Origin: Eledone cirrhosa
Lineage: Eukaryota
Assembly: GCA_964016885.1 (NCBI GenBank)
Contig: OZ024742.1
Coordinates: 343,728,001 to 343,792,000 of the forward strand
Reading direction: 5' to 3'
Length of the DNA stretch: 64,000 nucleotides
Shown here: positions 26,563-64,000 of the stretch, piece by piece
Layout of the letters: the number at the start of each line of letters is the position of its first letter
Numbering within the stretch: the first letter of the stretch is position 1
Notes under the pieces: generated by a model
Told to the model about the DNA's origin: nothing
What the model saw: only the letters and a program-made list of their open reading frames with translations
Database searches by the model: none
Translations under genes and position numbers: made by a program

Positions 26563-26580
26563 TTCGTTTCTGAATTTGTT

Positions 26581-27088
<508 letters not shown>

Positions 27089-27307
27089 TATATATATATA
27101 GATATATTTGTATAGCAAGATTCTTTATCTGAAATCGTGTGTTGAAACCGATATTGTTATACTTTGGGAGGGTCATGTTGCCAATAAGAAACCCACGCAC
27201 CAGTTGCTTTCACTTCAATTTATTATAATACATTTATAATAAATTTATAAATTTATAAATTTCTGGTTGGTTGGTTGGTTCCACAACCAGATAGTTGTTT
27301 ATATATT

Positions 27308-27350
27308 GTCATAGTTCTTTCGTCACACACTCTGTGACCTCTTCAGTGAC
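27308..27350 (-). ncRNA. Minimal hammerhead ribozyme in the left-arm pseudo-LTR
   Basis: Exact reverse complement of 33346-33388. Confidence 0.85.
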
Positions 27351-27551
27351 TGGGGATTCCTTTCTTTGTTTTTGTGCCTCTCCTTTGTTCTGTCCTACGC
27401 CATTTTGTTTCTGTGTTTGTGTTGTGTGCTCAGTCTGCGCATGCGCCACATCCGGGTGTCTGTGTGTGTTTATGTTTATTTATTTATTTGTTTATTTACA
27501 TGTTACTGGTTGGTTGTTTGTTCTATGTGTGTGTGTGTTTTCATTTTGTCC

Positions 27552-29572
27552 TTAATTGTAAGTTGTGATGTTGCTGTTCCACTCATATTTTCTATTTAAT
27601 TTTGGTTGTAATTCTTTTATGTTTATTGCCTCTGTGATTTGTCTAAACATTGCGTCTTTTCTGTGTGTAGATTCTATTTTTATTTCTATGTTCTCTAATT
27701 TACCCTTGTGTTCTATTTTAGCATGTTGGTAGAGGACAGATGATTCTTTACTATCTTGAAGGTCTCGCCAGTGTTCATTTATCCGTTCCCCTACACTACG
27801 AGCTGTCTCACCTATGTACACTATATTTTTGTCTCTACATTGTCCTTCAGTACATCTTATGCTATACACTACATTTCTAGTTTTACAGTTAATATGGGGG
27901 CTTATTTTACAGGTTATACATTTCTTATCAATACATGAGGGTCTTTGAAAAGGGTATGTCTTGCTAATAAGTGTTTTTACGGAGGTACCTGGTCTTTCTA
28001 CTATCTTAATATTGAGTTTATCTTTATCTAGGGCCCTTCTAAATTTGTAAGCTAATTCACCTCTAGGGGTTGTATCGATGAACATTACACTCTGGTATTT
28101 ATTGCTATCATACCATGAGTTTATTCTATTAGCCTTGTTCCTAGTTCTTTCTATTCTATTCCAAAATTTGCTCCTATACAAGGGGCAGGTCCCATTTATG
28201 TCATTATTTACCATTTTTTCCCATTTGGTTCTGGCTCCTCTATACACTCTGATTTTATCTCTCTGATTGTAGCCAGAGAACTGCATACGGTGGATGAAGT
28301 GTTGTATGTGTCTCTCTAGTTCTTCGGGGTTGCACATGCGGGACACGTTCTCATCACCCGTACCAAATCCGCAATCAGTATGTTGATTTTGGTATGGTCC
28401 GAAACGGCCGAGTTTCGGTGGATCAGATGTTTGGAAGTCATGGGTTTGGCATAATGGGAATGGAGGATTTGTTTTTTGTTATTAATGGTATCTAACCAGA
28501 GCTCTGTGTCTAGTACAGGTAATCGATGGTTGGGGTGTTTACTTGGGTAGTCTATAGTAACTCTAATGCTCTGGTGGATGGAGTTAGCTATTTGCTGGAT
28601 GCTTTCCATTGTGTTTTTCTCTAGTTCCTGACTGTTCTCTAGTGGGGGTGTCTTAACTACGATGTTTATATCATCAACGTAGCGGGAGTACATTATCAGG
28701 GTTAAGGGGTCTTCTAATTGTTCTTTAAGTTTAAGTTTAAGTCTACTGTCCCACCATACCATGAATAAGTTAGCTATGTCGCCTGCAATGCTAACACCAA
28801 TGGCTGCTCCTTCCTCTTGGGGATATGTTTTTCCATTAAATTTGAACATATGTTCCTTAAGGGTTAGTTTTATGCTGGCCCCTACCGCATGTGCAATCAT
28901 TTTCTTCAGTTCATCGTGGTTTTCGGGTGTCCGTATGGCTCTGGTCCACCCGTTCCATCTATCTGTGTGGGTTTTCTTGGCCATTGAGGTAATGGTAGGT
29001 GGTCTGCCTCTTGCTGGTCTTGTAGGGCACAGGTTGCTAAGGTCATATGTGTCTAGGTAATTATTACTATAGGTAAGTTTAAGTAGGAGTCCCAGCTCAC
29101 TGATATCAATCCCACGGAACTCAACATTGCTCTCACTGATCATTTCTACGCATTTCTCCACAGCAAAATCCACGTCAATAGATGGATACAGGGACACAAC
29201 ATCCATACTACCCTACAGGGACACAACATCCATACTACCATAATACCTATTATGCAGTTTGTTAGGTCCCTAGATTGGTTACTCCCGCCGATTCTGCTGA
29301 GGAGGTCCTCCGTGCTGTCACAGACATCTGGGGACATTTCAATGATGGGGCGTATGTCAACCGACATTCTGCCAGACTTGTCTGTTGGAAAGCATGCTAT
29401 CTCTCCATTACGCGAGCGCTGCATGAGCTTACGCAAGCCATTTGCAGATTTTTCTCCCAGTTGCTGGGCCTCCATTTTATTATGCTTCTTGCTATACTGT
29501 TCTATAATATTTCTAAGTTCGGATCTAGCTATACTAAATTGTGCTTCTGTTTGTTCATCGACCTGCGACGGC
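27552..29572 (-). pseudogene. Penelope-like RT/GIY-YIG ORF, inverted 5'-truncated copy
   Basis: ORFs 29146-29475, 28316-29206 and 27552-28346 match the + copy (SMDVVSLYPSI, QEEGAAIG, RYVDD, VVYSI..VYIGET). It carries a 306-bp in-frame deletion, a 35-bp duplicative insertion near 29190-29245 and a 1-bp frameshift near 28349. Confidence 0.93.
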
Positions 29573-32500
29573 TATGTTCTGTTGTCTACGAAAAACCATA
29601 ACATCTCGACAACTACACTTCATAAAAGAATGTGCCTCGTCCCGAGTTTACACCAACACCATCAACACCGACGTAAGAAGATTACAACTCACCAAAAAAC
29701 AAGCAGATAGGCTAAAACGAACACTAATTCTAAACATAAAAAAAGAAGATCTATAGAGAATTAAGTCATCAAGAAAAACATAAGCGTAACCTAAAGCAAG
29801 AAATAGCTAGGATCACCACACCAAGAGAGAAACTAATATTTATAAGCCTTATACGTCCTGAAGAACAGTACATTACTCAAGAATGTGATAAGCACTTTAA
29901 CAAGAAACTAAAGTGGCTTAAGCAGATAAAGCTAAATCAGGATACTGTAGAGAATACCAATAGATATCCCGAAAAAATTGACGGTATAAATATGGCCGAC
30001 ACCTCATTAACAGATGAGTTCAACAACAACAACACAAATATATACGGCAACACGGTAATAGATGACGATGAGTTATCTGTATTACGTCTACCACCGAAAT
30101 TTGCGACATTCAAGAAGGTAAATATGATTAGTTGTCTGTCAGAAATAGAAAAAATCATTTACAAAATTACGCTGGAGCCTCAAAAACAAAAACAAAAACA
30201 AAAGTAACAATATACGCACACACATATACAACACACATCCCAACAACAACAGACACACAGACACAAACAACAATAACAACAACACACACACCACCACCAC
30301 CAACAACAACAACAACAACAATAATAACATACCCAGAAACAACAACAGACACGCAGACACAAACAACAATAACAACACACACAACAATAATAACACACAC
30401 GGAGACAACAACAACACACATCAACAACAACAACACACACACATTCAATGCCTCTCACCACCACCACAATCTTAACAAACACACAGACACAGAAAACAAG
30501 TAATGACAGTAGCACAGAAATCACAGAAATAAGAGAAAGTAATAGGATTAAAAGGAGAAGGGAGACTAAGGACAAAGAAAATAACCAAGACGAACACACA
30601 GACACACAAAATAGGGTAGATAACAACAATGAGCCAGTGGAAAGAGACAGGAGTAATTATGAGAGACATAGAAACAACCATGAGGCTGTTGGTGGAAATA
30701 GAAATAGAAACAACACAACTAACAATAACAATAGCACTAGTACACATAAAGCAGCAGCCTGGAACTCTACTTTTTATAATCCCTCCGATAAATAGTTCGA
30801 CCTGCGACGAGTCCACGCCACCATTTTACCATTTAACAAACGCACGCAATTGCCGTCGCAGGTCGATGAACAAACAGAAGCACAATTTAGTATAGCTAGA
30901 TCCGAACTTAGAAATATTATAGAACAGTATAGCAAGAAGCATAATAGAATAGAGTCCCAGCAACTGGGAGAAAAATCTGCAAATGGCTTGCGTAAGCTCA
31001 TGCAGCGCTCACGTAATGGAGAGATAGCATGCTTTCCAACAGACAAGTCTGCCAGAATGTCGGTTGACAGCCTGCCAAACTACATCCAGGCAATGTAACC
31101 CCACATCACTAACACAAGAGAGGTAACACCACAGGAGCAGGAGTATATAGAAAAAGCCCTCAATGACCATATGGTGATGTGGACGAATATAATGCAGCCC
31201 AACAAAAGGACTGCCAACAACTTCCAGGCCTGGAACAATGACGTGTCGGCGTTGTATGGGCTTCGAAAAGACCATGAAACGGGCAGTGACCCTGTCGCGG
31301 GACCACCAACACGGCCAGTCTGTGGGGCTAACATTGCTAGTAACTACAGACTGTCCTACTTCCTCTCCCTGATCATACGCCCCATCATTGAAATGTCCCC
31401 AGATGTATGTGACAGCACGGAGGACCTCCTCAGCAGAATCGGCGGGAGTAACCGATCTAGGGACCTAACAAACTGCATAATAGGTAGTATGGATGTTGTG
31501 TCTCTGTATCCATCTATTGACGTGGATTTTTCTGTGGAGAAATGCGTAGAAATGATCAGTGAGAGCAATGTTGAGTTCCGTGGGATTGATACCAGTGAGC
31601 TGGGACTCCTACTTAAACTTACCTATAGTAATAATTACCTAGACACATATGACCTTAGCAACCTGTGCCCTACAAGACCAGCAAGAGGCAGACCACCTAC
31701 CATTACCTCAATGGCCAAGAAAACCCACACAGATAGATGGAACGGGTGGACCAGAGCCATACGGACACCCGAAAACCACGATGAACTGAAGAAAATGATT
31801 GCACATGCGGTAGGGGCCAGCATAAAACTAACCCTTAAGGAACATATGTTCAAATTTAATGGAAAAACATATGCCCAAGAGGAAGGAGCAGCCATTGGTG
31901 TTAGCATTGCAGGCGACATAGCTAACTTATTCATGGTATGGTGGGACAGTAGACTTAAACTTAAACTTAAAGAACAATTAGAAGACCCCTTAACCCTGAT
32001 AATGTACTCCCGCTACGTTGATGATATAAACATCGTAGTTAAGACACCCCCACTAGAGAACAGTCAGGAACTGGAGAAAAACACAATGGAAAGCATCCAG
32101 CAAATAGCAAACTCCATCCACCAGAGCATTAGAGTTACTATAGACTACCCAAGTAAACACCCCAACCATCGATTACCTGTACTAGACACAGAGCTCTGGT
32201 TAGATACCATTAATAACAAAAAACAAATCCTCCATTCCCATTATTCCAAACCCATGACTTCCAAACATCTGATCCACCGAAACTCGGCCGTTTCGGACCA
32301 TACCAAAATCAACATACTGATTGCGGATTTGGTACGAGTGATGAGAAACGTGTCCCGCATGTGAAACCCCGAAGAACTAGAGAGACACATACAACACTTC
32401 ATCCACCGTATGCAGTTCTCTGGCTACAATCAGAGAGATAAAATCAGAGTGTATAGAGGAGCCAGAACTAAATGGGAAAAAATGGTAAATAATGACATAA

Positions 32501-33144
32501 ATGGGACCTGCCCCTTGTATAGGAGCAAATTTTGGAATAGAATAGAAAGAACTAGGAACAAGGCTAATAGAATAAACTCATGGTATGATAGCAATAAATA
32601 CCAGAGTGTAATGTTCATCGATACAACCCCTAGAGGTGAATTAGCTTACAAATTTAGAAGGGCCCTAGATAAAGATAAACTCAATATTAAGATAGTAGAA
32701 AGACCAGGTACCTCCGTAAAAACACTTATTAGCAAGACATACCCTTTTCAAAGACCCTCATGTATTGATAAGAAATGTATAACCTGTAAAATAAGCCCCC
32801 ATATTAACTGTAAAACTAGAAATGTAGTGTATAGCATAAGATGTACTGAAGGACAATGTAGAGACAAAAATATAGTGTACATAGGTGAGACAGCTCGTAG
32901 TGTAGGGGAACGGATAAATGAACACTGGCGAGACCTTCAAGATAGTAAAGAATCATCTGTCCTCTACCAACATGCTAAAATAGAACACAAGGGTAAATTA
33001 GAGAGCATAGAAATAAAAATAGAATCTACACACAGAAAAGACGCAATGTTTAGACAAATCACAGAGGCAATAAACATAAAAGAATTACAACCAAAATTAA
33101 ATAGAAAATATGAGTGGAACAGCAACATCACAACTTACAATTAA
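29573..33144 (+). pseudogene. Penelope-like polyprotein (N-terminal region, reverse transcriptase, C-terminal GIY-YIG endonuclease), interrupted by stops and frameshifts
   Basis: Motifs LSVLRLPPKF, FPTDKS, LYGLRKDH, GPPTRPVCGA, SMDVVSLYPSI, YAQEEGAAIG, RYVDD, LPVLD, a Cys-rich linker (CIDKKCITC) and NVVYSIRC..VYIGETARSVGERINEH..EA..LN. In-frame stops at 30793-30795, 31096-31098 and 32362-32364. Confidence 0.95.
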
Positions 33145-33240
33145 GGACAAAATGAAAACACACACACACATAGAACAAACAACCAACCAGTAACATGTAA
33201 ATAAACAAATAAATAAATAAACATAAACACACACAGACAC

Positions 33241-33298
33241 CCGGATGTGGCGCATGCGCAGACTGAGCACACAACACAAACACAGAAACAAAATGGCG
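33241..33298 (+). promoter_or_regulatory. Putative Pol II promoter motif cluster in the pseudo-LTR (ETS, NRF1, YY1-like); mirrored at 27398-27455 (-)
   Basis: CCGGATGT (33241), GCGCATGCGC (33250-33259) and CAAAATGGCG (33289-33298) lie within 60 bp of otherwise A/C-rich sequence, just upstream of the hammerhead. Confidence 0.55.
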
Positions 33299-33345
33299 TA
33301 GGACAGAACAAAGGAGAGGCACAAAAACAAAGAAAGGAATCCCCA

Positions 33346-33388
33346 GTCACTGAAGAGGTCACAGAGTGTGTGACGAAAGAACTATGAC
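33346..33388 (+). ncRNA. Minimal type I hammerhead ribozyme of the Penelope-like pseudo-LTR
   Basis: Stem I GTCA/TGAC; core CTGAAGA plus one extra G; stem II GTCACA-gagtg-TGTGAC; GAAA; very short helix III AG-aa-CT; predicted cleavage after CUA (33384). Confidence 0.85.
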
Positions 33389-33560
33389 AATATATAAACA
33401 ACTATCTGGTTGTGGAACCAACCAACCAACCAGAAATTTATAAATTTATAAATTTATTATAAATGTATTATAATAAATTGAAGTGAAAGCAACTGGTGCG
33501 TGTGTTTCTTATTGGCAACATGACCCTCCCAAAGTATAACAATGTATAGATATAGATATA

Positions 33561-35543: not shown

Positions 35544-38119
35544 CCTGGGTATGACATTAAACTACATCCAGTGGCAAGGCTCCAGTTCGGGAGTTCAGGA
35601 GCTGTGGGGAATGTGGAGTTACCCCTTAGTTGTCATAACTCCCAGGTCTGCTGGCCTGGAGTAGTAGTACCTGTTAGGGCCCCAGTTATAGGTTAAATAA
35701 TTACCTTATTCAAGTGGCGCCGGTAAGGTATTTTCAGCCATTGAAAAGAACATGGAGATTGTATTTAACAGCACTAATTATACAGCCCCTAATTACACTG
35801 TCAAGGAGCAGTCTGGTCGTTATGACTCTACTGGCTTAGAGCCACAAGGGAGGGCCAGTGGATGATGGATCAGCTATCTCTGAGACAAATATAAAGAATA
35901 CAGTTTTGTCCTGCAGAAAAGCCATCAAAATGGGCACTTTGAATGTGAGGACTATTCGGACGCTGGAGAAGAGGGAGGAGTTTGGTCATCTATTCGAGGA
36001 GAGTGGTATGCAGATACTTGCGCTCCAAGAACACAGGGTCCTACACAATGAGCCCGTGAGGAGTGTGATGATTGGGAAGATGAGCCAGCTCATCACCACA
36101 TCGGCAGTGAGGAACATGACCAATGCTGCAGTGGGAGGAGTGGGTTTTGTTTTCAGAGCAAAAACCAATCTATTGGTGAAGGAAATAATGCCTGTCTCCC
36201 CGCGAGTGTTGAGGGTGACCTTCAATGGAAACCCAAGACTGACAGTTATCTCAGCCTATAGTCCAGCCGAGGGAGACAGTGATGTGAGTGCGGAAGTGTT
36301 CCATGAGGAGGTGTGTAGAGCTGTCAACACCACACAAGCACACAACATCCTGGTTGTTCTAGGGGACTTCAATGCACATCTGAGTAAGGAGGGCAGTGAA
36401 GATCCTTGCTGGTACTTCTATAACAACACCAACCGAAATGGAAGACTTCTGAGAGAGACCCTGCTGGAGGCGAACTTGATAGCAACCAACCTAAGGTTTA
36501 GGAAGAATCTGGAGAAGATGTGGATCTACATCTCAGATATGCACCTGTCCAAGTCCCAGATTATTTCATTCTGGTGAGGAAAAAGTGGCGGAATAGTGTT
36601 CTGAATACAGAACCATACAACTATTTCAGTACACTGGGCAGTGACCACCGGCTTGTTATGAGTGAGGTCCGGGTGAGATTAAGAAAAAGCAAGGCTCAGC
36701 CCCGGAGAGCAATCTATGATTGGGGAGTTTTCAAGGAAGATGATAAGCCACATGAGAGGTTCACAGTAGAAGTGAGGAACAGGTTCAATGCTCTGTGTGG
36801 AGAGACAGAAGAGAGAGAGATTGGATAGACTGAGGAGAGTGTGACGAGGAGATACGGGTACTTCACCAATGCAGTGGCGGAAGCAAGTGAGACTCTGGTG
36901 CCGAGGAGAAAGAACAAAAGGAAGCACGTCAGCTCTGCAGACCCAAAAGTGTGTGCAGCCAGAGAACACCTGAAAGCTGCCAAAGACCAATTCTATGCTG
37001 ATCCTATGGAGGAGAGGATGGAGACTGTGGAAGTGATGAGGGAAGAACTCTGTACCGCTTACACTGAGGCCAGAGAGGAAGCACTGATAGAGAAGATCAG
37101 AAGTGTGGAGAGAGCGGTTGGCAGGTCTGGATGTAAGGAGAGCTGGATGGTCATCGACGAGATCACAGAGAAGAAGAGAAGGTGTTCGAGTCAGATCCAG
37201 GGAACAGGGCCCGAGGATAGGAAGGAGAAATGGCTAGACCATTTTAGGACCCTACTAGGAGAGCCGCCCTCCACAGCCCAGGAAACTGGGGAGAGATCAG
37301 GTGGCTGTTTGAGGAACTGGATATTGAGACAGGGCCCTTCACTAGAGAGGAGCTTCAGAGAGCCAAGAAGAAGATCAAGGAGGGCAAGGCTCGTGGAGAA
37401 GATGGAGTGACATCAGAGGTGATGAAGAGGTGTGATTTTGATGATATCATCCTGGGGTTCTGTAACCAGGTACTGGAGAAAGGAGTTGCCTCGAATCAGT
37501 GGAGGATCAGTAACATAAGAAGGGAGATCTCTCCAACACCAACAACTACAGGGGGATCTCACTGACGTCACTTTTGGCAAAGACCCTCAACAGGATGATT
37601 CTTAACAGGATCCAGTCCGAGATGGAGAAGAAGCTCAGGGACAACCAGAACGGCTTCAGAGAGGGAAGATCAACCACCAGTCAAATCCTGATGCTGAGGA
37701 GGATATTAGAGGGAGCTAGAGCAAAGTGCCTTCCCGCGGTCATGGTTTTCATAGACTTTCGGAAGGCCTTTGATTCTGTGGTCCGTCACTGCCTGATGAC
37801 GATCTTACAGGCTTATGGAATTCCCAAGAAAATAGTGGACCTGATATCACTGCTCTACACCAACACCAAAGCCCAAGTCATTACATCTGATGGGATGACA
37901 GAGTTCTTTGAGATACTGGCTGGAGTGCTCCAGGGAGATACATTGGCTCCCTACCTTTTTATAATCGTAGTGGACTATTGTATGCGCCTTGTTCTGGAGA
38001 AACACCAGGACTCTGTCTTTACTGTAACACCGGCTCAGAGCACGAGAATTAAGGCGAAAAATATATCGGATGCTGAATTTGCCGACATAGTTTTGGTGAC
38101 AAACACAGTGAAGGGGGCA
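35544..38119 (+). mobile_element. Inverted 5' segment of the same RTE-type LINE (5' UTR, APE endonuclease, RT up to the FAD(D) motif), frameshifted
   Basis: GTLNVRT, ALQEHR, LGDFNAH, N.NG..L and GSDHR (APE); NYRGISL, QNGFR.GRST, FIDFRKAFDSV, GVLQGDTLAPYLF and EFADI (RT). Confidence 0.93.
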
Positions 38120-38480
38120 TATATATATATATTAATTATATTAATTATACACTATTAAAATTCGTTAGGAGTATACATAACATCTCAATTAAAAGAGATC
38201 GTTAAGATATCTTATTAAGAGAATAAGCCTATATATAGAATATATTTCACTTGTCATTAACTATTGGATTCTTAGGGAAACTGTACAGACTTAGAGTTAT
38301 AGGGTAGTGAAGTATTTTGGTGGTTGGTTGTTCTTGTATTTATTAAAACTGTAAAGGAAGCAAGAGAATTGGAATGAAATGAATATATAAATAGAGTATC
38401 TTATACATATCAGTGACGGGTCGATAAAATATCGTTCCCTCGGGATATCTAAAACATCAATCAACTTAAACATAAGGAGC

Positions 38481-45031: not shown

Positions 45032-46299
45032 ATAGTTTATAATTTTTTTCAATTTACAGGGAAATTCGAATTTTCTGGCATGTTAACATTTGAAATTTTG
45101 GTTGTTATTTCTAGCTTGTTGAGGGAACATGTAGAGGCTCTCTGGTTAGCATGTTAGATTGCGAATTTATCTATTTGACGACAATGATTCACAATATAAA
45201 TCTTGATTTACATATATTTTATCGATGGGTTTTAAGAGACAGTTAAACAGCTACGGCGTGTTAACGAATAGAAATAGCTATATTTACCTATATTTGATAA
45301 AAGTGTTATATGAATTGTAATATGCGTACATGTATAAACAAAGTTAAAATCCACCCCAAGCTCGGAGCTGCCTCAAGCTAAAGCTTACCTCGGTTTAATT
45401 GGCGGTAAACAATCGAGATTACAAGAATTCCCACTGGACAGGACGCCAGTCCATTGCAAGTTAACTCTCAGCTGCAACTGGAGTAATGTGAAATGAAGTA
45501 TTCTTGAGAAATGCACACACACACACATACACGCACATATACATACATGCATACATATACATACACACAAACATTATAAATATATATATATATATATATA
45601 TATAGATACACACATACATAGATAGATACACACACACACACCCCGGTGGGATTTGAACTCAGAACGTAAAGAGACGAAACTATGCCACAAAGCATGTTGT
45701 CCGATGCTCTACCGAATAGTGCCAATCTACTACCCTTATATTTATGTATAATAAACATATATAAGTCTTGCGAGATATACCTTGGAGGAGGCCAGCTAAA
45801 CCTGCATAGGTGTGAGCTGTCACACAAACACACACAAACTTCAGTTTTATGTCCTGTGAGGATCTTGTGACTAGCTTTAACTGTCTCTATGTGCTGTGAA
45901 TATTAGCCGAATACAGCTAGATGTCATCTAGAGAACATGTGTGACATAAACCTCTCTCTCATCGGAAAAACCTAGCATGAAGCCATTGCATTTCCTCAGC
46001 AGAGCTGTCAGGGGTTTCATTGCAAACAGGAACAGCATTACTGACAAGCTGTCATTCTGGAATATTCCTATTGATAATCCAATATTCTCTGTAACTACAG
46101 TTGTTGGTATAGTGTTTAGATAGTGCTGAGGAGATCATGTAAGAGTAAGTCTTTGAATGACTTTAACTACGGCAGATAGAACTTTAGCAAGGTGTGCTGC
46201 CTCTAACATCCATGATTAGAGATAGAGTCGAGCGCTGTCTTATTGTCAAGCTACACAGTAAATTTTCACAATGTCTATCAAATTCTTTGAAAACAGCTT

Positions 46300-46535
46300 T
46301 ATTTGATGAAGAGCTCTTTAACACAACACCAGGGACATTTGTTTGATAAAGAGCTCTTTAACACAGCTCCAGAGACATTTGTTTGATAAAGAACTCTTTA
46401 ACACAGCTCCAGAGACATTTGTTTGACAAAGAGCTCTTTAACAGCTACAGAGACATTTGTTTGATAAAGAGCTCTTTAACAAAACAACAGGGACACTTTT
46501 TTTATGAAGAGCTCTTTAAAACAACTCCAGAGACC
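46300..46535. repeat. ~40-bp minisatellite, about 6 copies
   Basis: Unit AGAGACATTTGTTTGATAAAGAGCTCTTTAACACAGCTCC, containing the palindrome AAAGAGCTCTTT. Confidence 0.9.
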
Positions 46536-46764
46536 TTTATACTCTCCTCTCTCCTGCTTACTCATCAGTCACAAGATTGTTAGGTAGTAATCTTGACAAA
46601 CATTCAAACAAATCGTGTAGAGTTTAGGTACAACATTTATACAAGCCATGAGCTCTAGATTTTGGCTATATGGGATTTGTGGTTCTGAGGCTCAAATCTT
46701 GTCTGAGGCATCACCAGCTTTCTGGCACATCAAGTAGGGACCCTATTAGGTTTTTAAAATGTCG

Positions 46765-47213
46765 GTCATGAACCTTGGGTAATGACTGAAAGAATACGAT
46801 TGCAAATACAAGCGGCTGAAATGGGATTCCTACGAAGAGTGTTTAGAGTAACGTTACTCGATAAAGTGCGTAGCTCAGAAATCAGAGAATACTCCAAGTA
46901 GAGCCACTAATTCTCCGAATTGAGAGATCACAGTTCCAATACTATGGACATGGGGTTAGAATATCTACACAAACAATCGCTGGACAGATTTAAGGGCAAA
47001 ATCAAATTGCAGGACACCCAGGGGTAGACCCTGAGCATGATGGCTGGATAACATCCACGACCTCGGGTAGTCTCGCTTGGGGAACTAGCCGGATCATTTG
47101 GAGACGGTTGCTTCTGACAAGGCCAGCTGGAAGGAGTATCTGAGGTCTCTGCCCCCATGACCTTCTCAGGAATAAGTGAGCAAAGAAGAAGAAGAAGAAA
47201 AAGAAGAAGAAGA
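46765..47213 (+). mobile_element. Third Expander/Rex3-like RTE 3' fragment with a (GAA)n tail
   Basis: Matches 40045-40420 and ends AAGAAGAAGAAG. Confidence 0.87.
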
Positions 47214-47544
47214 CGTGTGCTATTCTGTAAAACGTTAGTTTCTTATATTAGTAACCGATTATGAAATCTGTCCCAGGTGAATGTTTATTCAGTATGTTTC
47301 CAACAAACCACTGTAGGAGAGTTTCTCTGAAGCTATTATGTTTTAGGAGAGATGTTTGCACACTACTCACTCCGTAGCTCAATTACGTATACTGTAGCGC
47401 GGTGTTCTGTTTGTTTACCTTTCACCATCACCCACACCGCAACAATAACTAATAATTGCAAGACTTCGCTTTGAAAAGAATGAAGTGTGAAATCGAGACA
47501 AGATATTGTACAACAGAATAAAGAGGAAAGAGAAAGTAACAAAT

Positions 47545-47690
47545 GTAGTCCTTGAAGAGTTCACAGAGTGTGTGACGAAAGAACTTTATTAAACTAAGTA
47601 AAATGGAAATTATAATAATAAATTAAGTGAATCCCAACAGGTGCGTGTGTTTTTATTGGAAGCATGACCCTCCTAAAATATAACAATATA
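47545..47690 (+). mobile_element. Solo 3' end (pseudo-LTR) of a related Penelope-like subfamily with a degenerate hammerhead (47551-47586)
   Basis: TGAAGAGTTCACAGAGTGTGTGACGAAAGAACT matches 33351-33383 at all but one base. The downstream ATAATAAATT..AAGTGAA..CAAC.GGTGCGTGTG..TATAACAAT matches 33470-33543. Confidence 0.85.
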
Positions 47691-48674
47691 TAGTACGTGT
47701 GATTTTATTGGAAGCATGACCCACCTAAAATATAACAATATATAGTACGTGTGTTTTTATTGGAAGCATGACCCTCCTAAAATATAACAATATATAGTAC
47801 GTGTGATTTTATTGGAAGCATGACCCACCTAAAATATAACAATATATAGTACGTGTGTTTTTATTGGAAGCATGACCCTCCTAAAATATAACAATATATA
47901 GTACGTGTGTTTTTATTGGAAGCATGACCCTCCTAAAATATAACAATATATAGTACGTGTGATTTTATTGGAAGCATGACCCACCTAAAATATAACAATA
48001 TATAGTACGTGTGTTTTTATTGGAAGCATGACCCTCCTAAAATATAACAATATATAGTACGTGTGTTTTTATTGGAAGCATGACCCTCCTAAAATATAAC
48101 AATATATAGTACGTGTGATTTTATTGGAAGCATGACCCACCTAAAATATAACAATATATAGTACGTGTGTTTTTATTGGAAGCATGACCCTCCTAAAATA
48201 TAACAATATATAGTACGTGTGATTTTATTGGAAGCATGACCCTCCTAAAATATAACAATATATAGTACGTGTGTTTTTATTGGAAGCATGACCCACCTAA
48301 AATATAACAATATATAGTACGTGTGTTTTTATTGGAAGCATGACCCTCCTAAAATATAACAATATATAGTACGTGTGTTTTTATTGGAAGCATGACCCTC
48401 CTAAAATATAACAATATATAGTACGTGTGATTTTATTGGAAGCATGACCCACCTAAAATATAACAATATATAGTACGTGTGTTTTTATTGGAAGCATGAC
48501 CCTCCTAAAATATAACAATATATAGTACGTGTGATTTTATTGGAAGCATGACCCTCCTAAAATATAATATATAGTACGTGTGATTTTATTGGAAGCATGA
48601 CCCTCCTAAAATATAACAATATATAGTACGTGTGATTTTATTGGAAGCATGACCCTCCTAAAATATAACAATAT
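47645..48674 (+). repeat. 52-bp tandem array (20 units) derived from the Penelope-like 3' terminus
   Basis: Unit GTGTG(T/A)TTTTATTGGAAGCATGACCC(T/A)CCTAAAATATAACAATATATAGTAC; one unit has a 3-bp deletion near 48567. Confidence 0.97.
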
Positions 48675-48717
48675 TGAACCACGCATCACTCAAGGTAATT
48701 ATCAAGGATTATTATAG

Positions 48718-49970
48718 CTGAGGATTGGCAGTATCAGTAGAGTATCGGATACCATGCTTCGTGGCAGAGAGTTACTGTCCTTTACGTTCTGAGTTCAAAT
48801 CCCGTCGAGGTTAACTTTAACTTTCATCCTTACGGGGTTGATAAAATAAAGTACCAGTAATACACTGGGTAATTGCTGGCCTTGTGCCAAAAGTAGAAAC
48901 AATTATTATAGCTATCTATTTGGGCGGTGGATTGGAAGTATCAGTAGAGAGTCGGACACCATGCCATTCTGATTTCAAATCCCGCCGAGATTAACATTGC
49001 CTTTCATTCTTACGGGGTCGATAAAATAAAGTACCAGTAATACACTGGCTAATTACTGGCCTTGTGCCAAAAGTAGAAACAATTATTATAGCTCAAAAAC
49101 ACCTCAAAATTTGTTAATTCAAATGTTCCTATTCGTTTTAATCGTGAGTGTGTGGTCGTGAAAAATCGCTTAATTTAAGGAAATACTTTAGCATTTACAT
49201 TACTCTCTCTATATCCTATTGTATTTTTGTGGTAAAGGCTTTATCTTACGTAATTATCTCACATAATATAGAATCTACTGGTGGATTGGCAGTATCGGTA
49301 GAGGGTCGGACGCCATGCTTTGCAACAAAGAGTTACGGCCCTTTATGGTCTGAGTTCAAATCCCGCCAAGGTTAACTTTGCCTTTCATCCTTACGGGGGT
49401 CGATGAAATAAAGTACCAGTAATGCACTGGGATAATTGCTGACCTTGCGCCAAAAGTAGAAATACTAATATAGAATCTACGAGGTTTGGGTGTTATTTAT
49501 TTTGAGGACAATACCTTAACGCTAGTACGAGTGGCCATTTACGGCCAGTTTTAATAGTAAGAGGTGAGAGAATTCTGGTCGGATATGGCCGGTTTAAATG
49601 CTAAAGGGTTAATTTGTAATATGATGCAGGTAAGGAGCTGTTTTGTAATTGTAAAGAAATGTATTTTCATATGGTAGAGAAGATCAGTTACGCTCTGCTT
49701 AGCTCACAATTATCTCAGATTATCCCACACGATTAATGAGATGGCCGTAACATGATCAGAGCTTAAAATAGCTACAGCGAGATTTTAAATATAAACATAT
49801 TTAGGTTGGTGGATTGGCAATATCGGTAAAGCATCGGACAACATGCTTTGTGGCATCGAGTTATAGCCCTTTACGTTCTGAGTAACAGTAAGACACTGGG
49901 GTCGGTTTAATCAACTTTCTCTCTTCTACCTAAAAAAAGAATTGTTGGCCCTGTGCCTAAATCAGAAACA
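48718..49970 (+). mobile_element. Four SINE family A copies (~48718-48908, 48922-49088, 49278-49465, and internally deleted 49803-49970)
   Basis: Recurrent GGATTGGCAGTATC.GTAGAG head, core and GGCCTTGTGCC..AAGTAGAAAC tail. Confidence 0.85.
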
Positions 49971-50389: not shown

Positions 50390-51250
50390 TGCGTGACTGA
50401 GTGGTTAGAGAATTAGATTCGCAATCGTGGGGTTGTGAGTTCGATTCCCGGACAAGATTCCTTGGACAAGACACTTTATTTCATATTGCTCCTACCTGGA
50501 ATTGCAACCCATAGGTAGTATTAGCAATTGGAAAGACCAATGGAAACCTTGTTTCCTCGGTCCGATTTGACGAAAATTGATCGACTGTCGATATTCCTTC
50601 CTGAAATTGAGGGTAGGGTCTCGTATGTCAGTGGAGGGTAGGGTCTCATATATCAGTGGAGGATGGGTCTTATACGCCAGTGAAGGGTGGGGGTCTTATA
50701 TGTCGGTGGAGTCTTGTATGACAGTGGAAGGTGGGTCTTGTATATCAGTGGAGGGTTGGGTGTTATATGTCAGTGGAGGGTGGGGTGTTATATGTCAGTG
50801 GAGGGTGGGGTGTTATATGTCAGTGGAGGGTGGGGTGTTATATGTCAGTGGAGGGTGGGGTGTTATATGTCAGTGGAGGGTGGGGTGTTATATGTCAGTG
50901 GAGGGTGGGGTGTTATATGTCAGTGGAGGGTGGGGTGTTATACGTCAGTGGAGGGTGGAGTCTTATACGTCAGTGAGGGTGGGGTATCATACGTCAGTGA
51001 GGGTGGGGTCTCATACGTCAGTGAAGGGTGGGGTCTTATATGTCAATTATATATAGGAGTCGATTGTGAAATTGAACCAAGGAATCAATGTTTCCAGTGG
51101 TCTTTCCATTGCTGAAACTATAGAAAGGTCGCAACGTCTGGTAGGAAGAGGAACATGATGTAAAGAATTTTGTTCAAGAATAACCGCAAAACATCTCCTG
51201 GTCACCCAGGAATCGAACTCGTGTCTTTATCGTGAGCTCAACTCAACTAG
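50390..51250. mobile_element. Two family-B-like SINEs in inverted orientation (50390-50590 +, 51058-51250 -) flanking a minisatellite
   Basis: GCAATTGGAAAGACCAATGGAAAC on the left pairs with GTTTCCAGTGGTCTTTCCATTGC on the right; B-boxes GAGTTCGATTCC on both sides. Confidence 0.75.
50608..51045. repeat. 25-bp G-rich minisatellite, about 17 copies
   Basis: Unit GTCAGTGGAGGGTGGGGTGTTATAT; homogeneous centre with diverged edges. Confidence 0.95.
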
Positions 51251-54354: not shown

Positions 54355-55130
54355 GCACGTGTGAGTGGTTAAGATGATTGTTCCGCTATCTGGAGGTCTA
54401 GAGATAGATCCCACTGCATGGTATTATAGGCAAATGTCTTTACTATACACCATGATATTATAGGCAAGTGTCTTTACTATACACCATGGTATTATAGGCA
54501 AGTGTCTTTACTATACACCATGATATTATAGGCAAGTGTCTTTACTATACACCATGATATTATAGGCAAGTGTCTTTACTATACACCATGATATTATAGG
54601 CAAGTGTCTTTACTATACACCATGGTATTATAGGCAAGTGTCTTTACTATACACCATGATATTATAGGCAAGTATCTTTACTATACACCCTGATATTATA
54701 GGCAAGTGTCTTTACTATACACCATGATATTATAGGCAAGCGTCTTTACTATACACCCTGATATTATAGGCAAGTGTCTTTACTATACACCCTGATATTA
54801 TAGGCAAGTGTCTTTACTATACACCCTGATATTATAGGCAAGTGTCTTTACTATACACCGATATTATAGGCAAGTGTCTTTACGATACACCATGATATTA
54901 TAGGCAAGTGTCTTTACTATACACCCTGATATTATAGGCAAGTGTCTTTACTATACACCATGGTCGACCCAAACATTGCGAGTGAAATTAAATTAACGGG
55001 AGGCACGTTGAAGCCAGTACCTGTAATTCAATGGTCCAGCTTTGTTCTGATTGTGTCAAGTTACTTCTGCCTGAGAATTACGTTAAAGCTACACGTGTCT
55101 GTGGAATACACAACCACTTACACATTGTTA
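54355..55130 (+). mobile_element. Degenerate SINE (family B-like) split by an internal tandem amplification
   Basis: Head GTGAGTGGTTAAG..GATCCCACTGCATGG precedes the array, and the body GGTCGACCCAAACATTGCGAGTGAAATT resumes after it. Confidence 0.65.
54417..54963. repeat. 34-bp tandem array, 16 units
   Basis: Unit CATG(G/A)TATTATAGGCAAGTGTCTTTACTATACAC; one unit has a 2-bp deletion near 54859. Confidence 0.97.
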
Positions 55131-55760: not shown

Positions 55761-57503
55761 CTATTTACATCTATTTATATATATTAGGTCTCCTCTAAGT
55801 AAGTGAGAAAACTGTGTCTGTCTGTGTGAAAATTTTGAGATGAAATTACTTACATTTTCCACTTGGGATAAAGTTATGATATCATGTGAGTATAATTTCA
55901 CGGTTCGATCCCATATATCGGTAGTTACGTAATGAAGATCATCACTGCATCCACTATAGAAAATTATTACTTCCTCAGTTGACTCTAGTGGCTTACTGTA
56001 TAGAGCCATCTTTTCGAAAGCTGGTTTAACTCCTATACTTTGAGCTATTTCCACTGACGTATGGATTAACTCATTGTTAACTGATCTATATCTAGGAAGA
56101 ACATCAGAAATAGAAATCTTGAATATTTCACTTAACTCATTAACGCAAACCTGACGCCCAACTTCAGTTTCCATATCGAATTTAACTTCATTATGTTCAA
56201 TGAGTTTAGGAAAATCCTTAACATGCGTAGCTTCCATGTTGACAGGTAGAACTTGCTTGGCAATGTCAGTGGCAGGAAGAACATCAACATCAGATCTTTT
56301 GGTTTCATCAGCAGAATCCTTTTCTCTTTTCAGAATGGTTATACGATGTGGAGAAGGATTTCCTTTTAGATTATCTTCCTTCTTTAGAGGAGAGTTATTT
56401 ACAGGTTTTGACGGACACATTCTACCAGAGCTTGTATCTTTATTTTCTTTTGGAATATTATTCTGCTTATTAAATTCTTCGACCCGTAGATTTTGGTTAT
56501 TCTTAGACAATATTGTGTTCTTGCCCAAGTTTTGCGATAGTCCATTCATTAACACAACATTTGAATTCCGACAAATAAGTGGACAATTTGATTTAGATGC
56601 AACATTACAATATTGTGTGTTTTCTAGAGTGATTCTTTTACTGATCTCAGTTTCTTCACATGATTCATTGACGGTTGAACAAAATGATTCATTATTCATA
56701 GGCGTCAATGTCTGTATTTTAGTATCTACATCATGAAATATTACTCGTTTTTTAACTTTCTCTGGCTTCAATTGTTCACCGTGTCTAAGGAAATCTTTTG
56801 CAGTGTGCTCTTTGTTTGGAACCGATTCTATTGAATCGAGATTTACCTGATTTACAGTATAATTGACTTCGATTAGAAGAGAATTTAGAGTTTGTGTAAA
56901 GCGATTTGATCTCTGAAGATATGTTTGAGTTGAACAGTTTAGCTTCGTTAATTTTGATTTATCAATGACAAAAAACGAAGATTCTTCAGTTTGTGTTCCA
57001 CATTCACGGATATCCAAAGTTTTTAATTCTCCCAGTTGAAGATTTATTTTTGTACGTTCAACCGAACAGGAACCTACTGAATATTGTTTAGAAGCTAACT
57101 CTTCAGGATTAACCCCCCTCTTAAGATGTGTTGTTTTATAAGACTTGTCTATAGAGGAATCTTCCATTGATATTTCAGAACATTGTTGCCGTCGATGTTC
57201 CATTATTAGTTGGCAATCACTTTCAGAAGAACTTTTTAGTAAGGGGTACCGGCAATCTTTCGACATTAGTCTACTTACAGCTGGGTCCGTGATATCTTTT
57301 AAATAATTAGCAGAAAGACATTTCTGCGATGCTTCCAGACCAGTTCGACTTATAACATTTTTTTCATAATTAAGTTGCGGGAATTTATTTTCAGAATTGT
57401 TAATTTTCTGTTTTCGCCATGCGTTTAACATTTGTATAGAGTCCACACTAGAGTCCGCTCGAGTTTTTAATTTGATAGATGAATAATGATGCTTTGCTGG
57501 TGT
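55761..57503 (-). CDS. Large, probably terminal coding exon (~580 codons) of an unidentified host gene
   Basis: A 1.7-kb stop-free frame in AT-rich non-repetitive DNA, preceded by a polypyrimidine acceptor CTTCTGTTTCACCTTTACAG|ACA in phase 0. AATAAA occurs downstream on the minus strand (55607-55612 and 55529-55534). No transposon motifs recognised. Confidence 0.75.
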   Translation of the reverse strand, partial: TPAKHHYSSIKLKTRADSSVDSIQMLNAWRKQKINNSENKFPQLNYEKNVISRTGLEASQKCLSANYLKDITDPAVSRLMSKDCRYPLLKSSSESDCQLIMEHRRQQCSEISMEDSSIDKSYKTTHLKRGVNPEELASKQYSVGSCSVERTKINLQLGELKTLDIRECGTQTEESSFFVIDKSKLTKLNCSTQTYLQRSNRFTQTLNSLLIEVNYTVNQVNLDSIESVPNKEHTAKDFLRHGEQLKPEKVKKRVIFHDVDTKIQTLTPMNNESFCSTVNESCEETEISKRITLENTQYCNVASKSNCPLICRNSNVVLMNGLSQNLGKNTILSKNNQNLRVEEFNKQNNIPKENKDTSSGRMCPSKPVNNSPLKKEDNLKGNPSPHRITILKREKDSADETKRSDVDVLPATDIAKQVLPVNMEATHVKDFPKLIEHNEVKFDMETEVGRQVCVNELSEIFKISISDVLPRYRSVNNELIHTSVEIAQSIGVKPAFEKMALYSKPLESTEEVIIFYSGCSDDLHYVTTDIWDRTVKLYSHDIITLSQVENVSNFISKFSHRQTQFSHLLRGDLIYINRCK

Positions 57504-57762
57504 CTGTAAAGGTGAAACAGAAGTAGATTTGTAATTCGGAAGAAAGAAAACAGTTTTTTTAAGAGCATAGTATGTTCGCGAATAATATAGGGTAGGTCTG
57601 TACGATCTTTTCTTTCGAGGGGTATGTTTTTTTAAAAGCTGTTTCCATTATAAAATCAAATGATGAATTTAACTAACACGTTTCAAGTTGTCGATTATTT
57701 GTAAACACATTTTTTCCTTTCAAAATACGAAGCTAGAATATATTTTTAACACACAATACTCT

Positions 57763-61504: not shown

Positions 61505-64000
61505 ACATCTAGAGTGGCACTGGCTGTACCAGTGGCACATCTAGAGTGGCACTCCAACGACTGGCTGCTTCAGTGGCACATCTAGAGTGGCACCCCAATA
61601 AGTGGCTGTACCAGTGGCACATCTAGAGTGGCACCCCAATGACTGGCTGTACCAGTGGCACATCTAGAGTGGCACCCCAACAACTAGGTGTACCAGTGGC
61701 ACACCTAGAGTGGCACCCCAACGACTGGCTGCTTCAGTGGCACATCTAGAGTGGGACCCCAATAACAGGCTGTACCAATGGCACATCTAGAGTTGCACCC
61801 CAATGACTGGCTGTACCAGTGGCACATCTATAGTGGCACCCCAACGACTGGCTGTACCAATGGCACATCTAGAGTGGCACCCCAATGACTGGCTGTACCA
61901 GTGGCACATCTAGAGTGGCACCCCAATAACTGGCTGTACCAGTGGGACATCTAGAGTGGGACCCCAATGACTGGCTGTACCAGTGGCACATCTAGAGTGG
62001 CACCCCAATAACTGGCTGTACCAGTGGCACATCTAGAGTGGAACCCCAACGTCTGGCTGTACCAGTGGCACATCTAAAGTGGCACCCCAACGTCTGGCTG
62101 TACCAGTGGCACATCTAGAGTGGCACCCCAATGACTGGCTGTACCAGTGGCACATCTAAAGTTGCACCCCAATAACTGGCTGTACCAGTGGCACATCTAA
62201 AGTGACACCCCAATGACTGGCTGCACCAGTGGCACATCTAGAGATGCACCCCAACGTCTAGCTGTACCAGTGGCACATCTAGAGTCGCACCCCAACGACT
62301 GGCTGTACCAGTGGCACATCTAGAGTGGCACCCCAATGACTGGCTGCACCAGTGGCACACCTAGAGTTGCACCACAATAACTGGCTGTACCAGTGGCACA
62401 TCTAGAGTTGCACCCCAATGTCTGGCTGTACCAGTGGCACATCTAGAGTGGCACCCCAACAACTGGCTGTACCAGTGGCACATCTAGAGTTGCACCCCAA
62501 TAACCGGCTGTACCAGTGGCACATCTATAGTGGCACCCCAATAACTGGCTGCACCAGTGGCACACCTAGAGTGGCACCCCAATGACTGACTGTACCAGTG
62601 GCACATCTAGAGTTGCACCCCAACGTCTGGCTGTACCAGTGGCACATCTAGAGTTGCACCCCAATAACTGGCTGTACCAGTGGAACATCTAGAGTTGCAC
62701 CCCAATAACCGGCTGTACCAGTGGCACATCTAGAGTTGCACCCCAATGACTGGCTGTACCAGTGGCACATCTAGAGTGACACCCCAACGTCTGGCTGTAC
62801 CAGTGGCACACCTAGAGTTGCACCCCAATGACAGGCTGTACCAGTGGCACACCTAGAGTGGCACCCCAATGACTGGCTGTACCAGTGGCACACCTAGAGT
62901 TGCACCCCAATGACTGGCTGTACCAGTGGCACATCTAGAGTGACACGCCAATGACTGGCTGCACCAGTGGTACAACTAGAGTTGCACCCCAATAACTGGC
63001 TGTACCAGTGGCACATCTAGATGGCACCCCAACAACTGGCTGTACCAGTGGCACATCTAGAGTTGCACCCCAACAACTGGCTGTACCAGTGGCACATCTA
63101 GAGTTGCACCCCAATAACTGGCTGCACCAGTGGTACAACTAGAGTTGCACCCCAATAACTGGCTGTATCAGTGGCACATCTAGATGGCACCCCAACAACT
63201 GGCTGTACCAGTGGCACATCTAGAGTTGCACCCCAACAACTGGTTGTACCAGTGGCACATTTAGAGTGACACCCCAACGTCTGGCTGTACCAGTGGCACA
63301 TCTAGAGTTGTACCCCAACGACTGGCTGTACCAGTAGCACACCTAGAGTTGCACCCCAATAACTGGCTGTACCAGTGGCACATCTAGATGGCACCCCAAA
63401 AACTGGTTGTACCAGTGGCACATCTAGAGTGGCACCCCAACAACTGGCTGTACCAGTGGCACATCTAAATGGCACCCCAACGACTGGCTGTACCAGTGGC
63501 ACATCTAGAGTTGCACCCCAATAACTGGCTGTACCAGTGGCACATCTAGAGTTGCACCCCAATGACTGGCTGTACCAGTGGCACACCTAGAGTTGCACCC
63601 CAACAACTGGTTGTACCAGTGGCACACCTAGAGTTGCACCCCAACAAGTGGATGTACCAGTGGCACATCTAGAGTTGCACCCCAACAACTGGTTGTACCA
63701 GTGGCACATCTACAGTGGAACCCCAATGACTGGCTGTACCAGTGGCACACCTAGAGTTGCACCCCAACAACTGGTTGTACCAGTGGCACATCTAGAGTGG
63801 AACCCCAATGACTGGCTGTACCAGTGGCACATCTAGAGTTGCGCCCCAATAACCGGCTGTACCAGTGGCACATCTAGAGTTGTACCCCAACGACTGGCTG
63901 TACCAGTGGCACATCTAAAGTTGCACCCTAATAACTGGTTGTACCAGTGGCACATCTAGAGTGGAACCCCAACGACTGGCTGTACCAGTGGCACATCTAG
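61505..64000. repeat. 41-bp satellite array, about 61 units, continuing beyond the right edge
   Basis: Unit CTGGCTGTACCAGTGGCACATCTAGAGT(G/T)GCACCCCAA(T/C)(G/A)A. Confidence 0.99.

Follow-up and report, generated by a model that had tools for sequence, protein, structure and literature searches.

The tandem array at positions 47641-48674 of the window is very probably a minisatellite that derives from the 3'-terminal part of an old Penelope-like insertion and that grew, long after this insertion had landed, by slippage and unequal exchange at the DNA level from a seed of two units. The window is the whole 64,000-nt stretch of the Eledone cirrhosa genome that was analysed (G000:C3:343728001-343792000, in a 3.0-Gb genome). 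A first-pass annotation of this DNA had left two origins for the array: telomerase-like repeat synthesis by the reverse transcriptase (RT) of the element, or later amplification in DNA.

Structure of the array and of the copy upstream

The array, the copy from which it continues and the block that contains both comprise the following features.
45771..49093, + strand: 3.3-kb block present a second time 28.3 kb downstream (G000:C3:343802037-343805723), where its array has 27 units
47496..47643, + strand: solo pseudo-LTR, Penelope-like, 5'-truncated and decayed, of an older subfamily
47547..47587, + strand: damaged hammerhead-like motif, read by eye against the young copy and the minimal type I layout of PMC4209133
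47641..48674, + strand: minisatellite of 20 units, in which the terminal ~49 nt of the element are joined to 3-5 nt of TA
48675..48720, + strand: unique 3' flank (TGAACC...), with AT as its sole overlap with the inter-unit spacer

The 52-bp tandem array described at first pass is real: TRF called it at 47644-48674 (period 52, 19.9 copies, 96% matches), and cutting it up gave 20 units, all of 52 bp except unit 18, in which a 3-bp deletion leaves 49 bp. Two columns only are variable, T/A at unit positions 7 and 28, which confirms the two biallelic sites noted earlier, and the variants follow the order ABABAABAABACDAABAECC. The final unit ends in AACAATAT and is followed by the unique flank TGAACC, so that the array halts just past the terminus, as had been observed.

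Each unit has the layout GT[G>A]CGTGTG...AACAAT plus ATATA and is homologous to positions 33496-33549 of a young element in the window (83-87% identity), the transposon homology expected of a transposon-derived minisatellite (VNTR). The element contributes ~49 nt to the unit rather than the ~43 nt first estimated, because the GTAC of the presumed linker is the GTGC of the element with one change. A foreign linker of 9 nt, 'ATATAGTAC', was rejected, as it consists mostly of TA and of this GTGC. The origin of the linker, posed earlier as a choice between element and target, is therefore mixed: GTAC is element-encoded apart from the one change, AT may come from either source, and ATA is TA-like and absent from the tail and the rest of the element. 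The non-element part of the unit is ATA/ATATA only.

The G>A change is present in all 19 junction units and absent from the first unit. The 48-nt terminal haplotype had no match at 0-1 mismatch outside the window locus and its duplicate, and 16 other places matched at 2 mismatches. This indicates that all units carry private letters, either by descent from the solo copy or by homogenisation to it. The junction between units also occurs in contigs built from the short reads of run X4, possibly the same sample as the assembly; the array is thus not an invention of the assembly, and an assembly artefact was rejected. In a search for a single-unit ortholog, no contig from organisms A, B or C bridged this locus, and positions 48678-48695 lay outside the contigs of all four runs. 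Folding of the unit (z=0.41), two units and the solo end revealed no significant structure (z 0.4-1.1).

The upstream fragment had been taken to start at 47545. Its alignments to genomic copies begin at 47489-47515, which places the start of the pseudo-LTR near 47496. Positions 47607-47693 match 33461-33549 at 85.6%, and 47547-47585 match 33345-33383 at 92%. The near-identity claimed for the hammerhead region holds, with 1 of 33 positions differing between 33351-33383 and 47553-47585, but the motif itself is damaged when compared with the minimal hammerhead as defined in PMC4209133: the core CTGAAGA reads TTGAAGA (C at 47552 = T), helix II contains a mismatch, and the 3' strand of helix I is deleted. 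An Rfam scan of 26000-64000 found no hammerhead and returned just microsatellite-driven miRNA matches below gathering scores. A candidate inverted-tail stub was seen by eye at 47463-47476, where BLAST gave no support.

A duplicate array with a different number of units

In the duplicate block, the array has 27 units against 20 in the window, while the flanks differ at 1 of 2,292 bases (one mismatch over 1,873 bp, none over the other 419 bp). The change of unit number with conserved flanks that characterizes a VNTR is thus found between two copies in the assembly. The duplicate block may be a misplaced allele instead of a paralog; in both cases, array length changed without a new insertion.

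The variant order of the duplicate array, AABAABAABAABAABACDAABACAECA, starts with AAB five times. Variants matched at lag 3 in 17 of 24 comparisons in the duplicate (P=0.0002) and in 8 of 17 in the window, the latter not significant (P=0.08), and the two variable sites were linked in both arrays (P=0.002 in the duplicate, 0.04 in the window). The repetition of variant blocks in threes indicates that blocks of units were copied, as in unequal exchange. Together with the 27 versus 20 units, this three-unit pattern fits later amplification at the DNA level.

The upstream pseudo-LTR is diverged, as had been stated: its identity to other genomic copies is 68-81%, against a mean difference of ~2% (2.1%) between units, confined to two columns. 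Units written at the time of insertion would have decayed independently, which argues that the present units were not.

Each boundary of the 3.3-kb block falls within another short interspersed repeat, suggesting that repeats mediated the copying of the block. It also holds a repeat of 40 bp x 6 at 46298-46538.

The parent family

A young element of the same family, its inverted arm and a neighbouring micro-insertion lie upstream in the window.
26563..26672, + strand: fold-back micro-insertion in TA, comprising an inverted tail (26563-26610) and the last 13 nt of the terminus, partly doubled with a 40-bp unit
27107..29575, - strand: inverted 5'-truncated arm of the young element, including part of the 3' tail (27107-27152)
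29576..33543, + strand: direct arm of the young Penelope-like element, ending in AACAAT within a TA/CA microsatellite; its frame is broken by stops
31099..32364, + strand: reverse transcriptase part of the ORF (Pfam RVT_1, E=2.1e-4, below gathering score; YVDD motif)
32365..33144, + strand: C-terminal part of the ORF with a CX4CxxC linker and a GIY-YIG endonuclease (Pfam GIY-YIG, E=3.5e-4, below gathering score; linker from the translation)
33345..33387, + strand: hammerhead-like motif of the young copy, by eye, with CTGAAGA, helix II, GAAA and helix I intact

Placed by its features rather than by a tree, the parent family appears to be EN+ Penelope-like and to match the Neptune/Nematis type as described in PMC8557442. 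The RT followed by a C-terminal GIY-YIG domain follows the Pfam order of EN+ Penelope-like elements (PLEs), with both matches weak, and C-IDKK-C-IT-C before the GIY-YIG domain in ORF P0001 fits the CX2-5CxxC definition of PMC8557442. The pseudo-LTR with an inverted 5'-truncated copy and an optional 3' tail is likewise present, with a 2.4-kb inverted arm at 97%: 27153-29356 matches 33543-31374 at 97.7%, and 29355-29575 matches 31069-30849. Neptune/Nematis elements share the domains, the linker, the inverted 5'-truncated arm, the optional 3' tail and TA microsatellite targets (PMC8557442, PMC3846280). The tail is ~58 nt in the window family and 30-40 in the described elements. A PDB search with the RT returned weak matches to bacterial defence RTs only, with no TERT or PLE chain.

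In the young copy, helices I and II of the hammerhead-like motif appear in the fold, which is not significant (z=-0.62), and Rfam gave no match. The last 144 nt fold better than shuffles (z=-2.5), the only segment to do so. The inverted arm alone contains a 27-bp duplication (29187-29239), and the direct arm a CAA-rich stretch (30217-30443) that resembles the Penelope asparagine-rich inserts described in PMC3846280.

For the terminal 16-nt motif, the genome contains 36,137 exact matches; copies of the family number in the tens of thousands, many of them with a TA run at the end. Among 32 family 3' ends at 28 loci, 12 lead to TA, 12 to an element-encoded tail of ~58 nt and 8 to other DNA, so that the family has two 3' ends, of which AACAAT is one. 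The Anolis element of PMC11167929 begins reverse transcription at two internal sites that bound a tail, and by this analogy AACAAT may be an RT start site rather than the end of the RNA. About 600 short 5'-truncated ends stand directly after TA, 297 of them on one strand.

Other features of the window are listed here as observations. An inverted pair of 170 bp and 80% identity (26695-26861 and 26949-27114) lies between the micro-insertion and the large element. A broken LINE-type element at 35840-38158 (+) retains endonuclease (Exo_endo_phos_2) and RT fragments. The region is generally rich in minisatellites, with further tandem arrays at 1-26006 (31 bp x 839), 50609-51045 (25 bp x 18), 54417-54962 (34 bp x 16) and 61519-64000, the last extending to 68412 (41 bp x 168). 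An open frame of 628 codons at 55761-57647 (-), with no Pfam match and, on a quick view, little order, may belong to a host gene as a large exon.

Terminus arrays across the genome

We searched the genome for tandem occurrences of the terminal motif with periods of 28-66 bp, counting the window and its duplicate once and two C22 clusters once. The search gave 88 matches at 15 independent loci among the 36,137 motifs. Tandem ends of this kind thus occur at ~4 loci per 10,000 terminal motifs, which indicates that RT reiteration is not routine. An internal control motif 35 bp upstream formed 3 doublets among 24,662 matches (terminal versus internal, odds ratio 3.4, P=0.052), and doublets that stopped short of the terminus occurred at the same rate as this control (4 of 36,137). 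Three of these four (L075, L076 and L079) break immediately after CATGACCC, which may mark a third, weak site of starting or switching.

Anchoring of units at the terminus had been set beforehand as the test for RT reiteration. The terminus was reached by 11 of the 15 loci, where 8.6 would be expected if breakpoints fell at random with the periods unchanged (P=0.14), and anchoring was therefore not above chance. Tight anchoring is expected in ~3 of 15 random duplications and so does not discriminate between the readings.

Further search patterns extended the set of loci, from the part read among the matches listed (100 of 356 and 100 of 113). Family ends stand head to tail at dozens of loci, and arrays of at least three units, ranging from 3 to 275 units, were found at at least 13 loci; every array found includes the terminus. 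The array is accordingly not unique to this locus; uniqueness would have counted against the earlier proposal. The broader claim of that proposal that a satellite can arise from a Penelope-like terminus is borne out by at least 13 arrays including that of the window. The arrays besides the window are as follows.
L067: nine units and a part
L074: 36 units
L081: three and four units
L085-L086 (G000:C3:64517962-64529490): 275 units, 11.5 kb
L088: five units
L089 (G000:C27:18094299) and L090 (C27:18935840): five units each
L091 and L092: three units each
L123 (G000:C17:4363975): four units
L126 (C1103): at least three units, contig end reached
L127/L128 (C1478): seven units, mutual duplicates

The 42-bp units of L085-L086 consist of 35 nt of the Penelope terminus and 8 nt of its own flank, in two main variants of 122 and 89 copies. 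The four tandem units of L123 are fold-backs of ~217 bp, each with tail, inverted end and direct end. At least eight tandem-end loci cluster at 11.5-18.9 Mb of the 22-Mb contig C27, seven of which share a common unit start in the AT-rich word AATAAATTG. Over 31 loci, unit starts take 19 different values, 13-175 nt before the terminus, and cluster at TA-like words, AT-rich starts being approximate.

Junction types and a shared spacer

Junctions were sorted with an automatically made spacer table, in which L074, L077, L078, L099 and L112 were read by eye. At L085 (8 nt exact), L092 (56 nt), L104, L113, L114, L117 and L118, the unit includes its own downstream DNA, as it nearly does at L067 and L074; from the junction sequences, we would class these loci as DNA duplications. 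At L070, L073, L081, L103 and L116, micro-insertions between two TA runs are doubled from the same 5' start, for which unequal exchange between the runs is the simplest reading. In other cases a second insertion lies in TA behind an older end and shows other subfamily letters (L105, L106, L119) or an inverted-tail start (L110, L111). Element-only junctions within complex insertions (L037, L071, L077, L098, L101, L102) fit RT template jumps and DNA microhomology equally. A tail on the last copy only was found in the doublets L068, L089, L098, L101, L105, L106, L108, L125 and L127. The window array matches none of these classes cleanly, as its spacer ATATA shares only AT with the final flank; the same mismatch of spacer and flank was seen at L089, L090, L091, L123, L125 and L127.

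A spacer (AT)n-AGTAAACT-(AT)n, with the terminal ~79 nt of the element behind it, forms 11 junctions in six places (L089, L090, L125 on C1015, L126 and L127/L128), five of them with unrelated flanks. This cassette stands behind copies from no fewer than three pseudo-LTR subfamilies, some with the tail and some lacking it, in chains of 2-7 ends. L089 and L090 each contain five ends, and the two differ both in the 5' point at which they begin and in the start site at which they stop; L127 has seven dissimilar units. The chain may have moved through RNA. Gene conversion may also account for the cassette, a reading kept alive by the clustering of these sites on C27 and unplaced contigs.

The doublet at 26.6 kb

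The 40-bp doublet at 26593-26672, cited earlier as a second terminus-anchored example, is real but has a different anatomy, in which the right part of a fold-back micro-insertion is doubled. Its unit consists of inverted tail, the last 13 nt of the terminus and TA, and its inversion junction is absent from the normal element and occurs singly at one unrelated locus. Because this junction is not in normal element RNA, the doublet lends weak support to re-priming. The simplest reading is that TTAT/TAT guided a duplication after insertion; a rare RNA with the inversion junction is a conceivable alternative source.

Origin of the array

The reading that we prefer, DNA-level growth from the end of an old insertion, would proceed in simple steps. 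A short terminal piece flanked on either side by TA-like microhomology would be easy to duplicate, the doubled piece would then act like any variable-number repeat, and the two-unit seed would grow by slippage and unequal exchange. The source of the seed is a separate matter. We give about an even chance to a TA-guided DNA duplication. A later second insertion beside the first end is a possible but doubtful source, RT re-priming within the same insertion event slightly more doubtful, and any other origin has only a slight chance. Several observations speak against the DNA-level reading: the spacer ATATA and the flank AT-TGAACC require an extra slip of 3-4 nt, the lag-3 pattern is not significant in the window array itself, doublets are 3.4-fold commoner at the terminal than at the internal motif (P=0.052), all arrays found include the terminus, and the element-only doublets in complex junctions fit RT template jumps.

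The origin first proposed, in which the element RT made ~20 successive copies of the last 49 nt of its RNA in one event, realigning between copies as telomerase does, is extremely improbable. The units do end at one of the true 3' ends of the family, an RT start site by analogy with PMC11167929; among eukaryotic RTs, those of PLEs are most closely related to TERT (PMC8557442, PMC12632851); and arrays exist at several independent loci. But telomerase and DRT10 require an A-B-A' alignment repeat and a template boundary, as described in PMC12632851, and we looked for both in the window family and found neither. After AACAAT, the RNA continues with AT and the tail and not with the unit start GTGCG, which leaves no repeat on which to realign, and the spread of unit starts leaves no fixed 5' boundary. 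The spacer ATA occurs in neither tail nor element, and other arrays contain flank DNA or long TA. Moreover, the duplicates differ in length, their variants are periodic and the units are far younger than the insertion, and only 15 tandem loci at 28-66 bp were found among all terminal motifs. The difference between 20 and 27 units, the three-unit pattern, the missing realignment repeat and the unit starts scattered over 13-175 nt thus speak against writing of the array by the RT. If an older array was written by the RT, concerted evolution could have removed its traces.

Growth by successive insertions, in which 3' ends next to TA are targeted by later short or re-primed cDNAs and the chain lengthens by retrotransposition instead of DNA exchange, is unlikely for the window array beyond its seed. 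It would account for the second copies with other subfamily letters or an inverted-tail start, for the nine doublets with a tail on the last copy only, for the shared-spacer cassette at five unrelated sites and the dissimilar units of L127, and for the ~600 short ends immediately after TA. Nineteen insertions, however, would not be expected to leave private letters in all window units and two alleles in periodic order. Local gene conversion, too, would fit the clustering of shared-spacer sites on C27 and unplaced contigs. Short ends behind a terminus number ~7-9 of ~600 by a rough count, where 0.45-0.75% is expected (P 0.002 to 0.16); this excess is ~2-3-fold only, and its baseline, taken from TA-run density in 116 kb and 50 kb of DNA, is rough.

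A non-LTR retrozyme, a ribozyme-bearing repeat that spreads via RNA circles, has next to no chance as an explanation. The array does derive from a pseudo-LTR, and a preprint (10.64898/2026.07.22.740005) proposes that retrozymes arise from PLE termini. Retrozymes are likewise tandem repeats derived from PLE pseudo-LTRs, but each of their units carries a hammerhead, whereas the window units carry none; the sole one lies upstream and is damaged. The fold of the unit is unremarkable, and the exact unit is confined to the window locus and its duplicate. The retrozyme was rejected because its defining feature, a hammerhead in each unit, is missing.

Relation to known repeats and significance

Transposon-derived minisatellites and satellites similarly contain a retroelement piece, often the 3' end, that has been amplified locally; PMC9659126 reviews satellites from retroelement 3' ends and does not name Penelope in its main text. 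According to the preprint cited above, local amplification can turn a PLE terminus into tandem repeats. What distinguishes the present case from known transposon-derived satellites is that one terminus has seeded at least 13 independent arrays, with differing unit lengths and a ribozyme-free unit. In the PLE partial tandems described so far, a truncated copy lies upstream; here, pieces of tens of bases lie downstream of a longer copy. Template jumps have been proposed for Penelope elements (PMC3846280). The Anolis element, Poseidon (PAc), also has two 3' ends separated by a tail, AT-rich targets and cleavage in its own pseudo-LTR (PMC11167929). The available part of that work contains no repeat ladder, and start sites in the present family come from genomic ends alone. 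Telomerase and DRT10 likewise produce tandem copies of a short RNA-derived unit with RTs of a related clade (PMC12632851). Among the titles and opening lines of abstracts that our literature search returned, from a library with few subscription papers, none dealt with ribozyme-free PLE 3'-end arrays or with a PLE RT that synthesizes reiteratively.

The minisatellite is a real feature, and its Penelope-derived unit was very probably multiplied by a mostly ordinary mechanism at the DNA level. For the family as a whole, we consider tentatively a wider possibility, on balance doubtful: its RT may re-prime at the same start site or home to TA by an earlier end and so build terminal chains, and its RNA may carry chains and spacers to new sites, seeding satellites of up to 275 units. 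If this is true, chain-building would be a form of retroelement end elongation, midway between insertion and telomerase-like repeat addition. How PLE chemistry is linked to that of telomerase could be tested directly if the shared-spacer chains of C27 proved to move via RNA, or if re-priming by an active PLE RT were seen in vitro. The natural series across the genome, from single ends through doublets to an 11.5-kb satellite, reveals how a TA-targeting retroelement seeds tandem repeats, and it makes the family a useful model of satellite birth.
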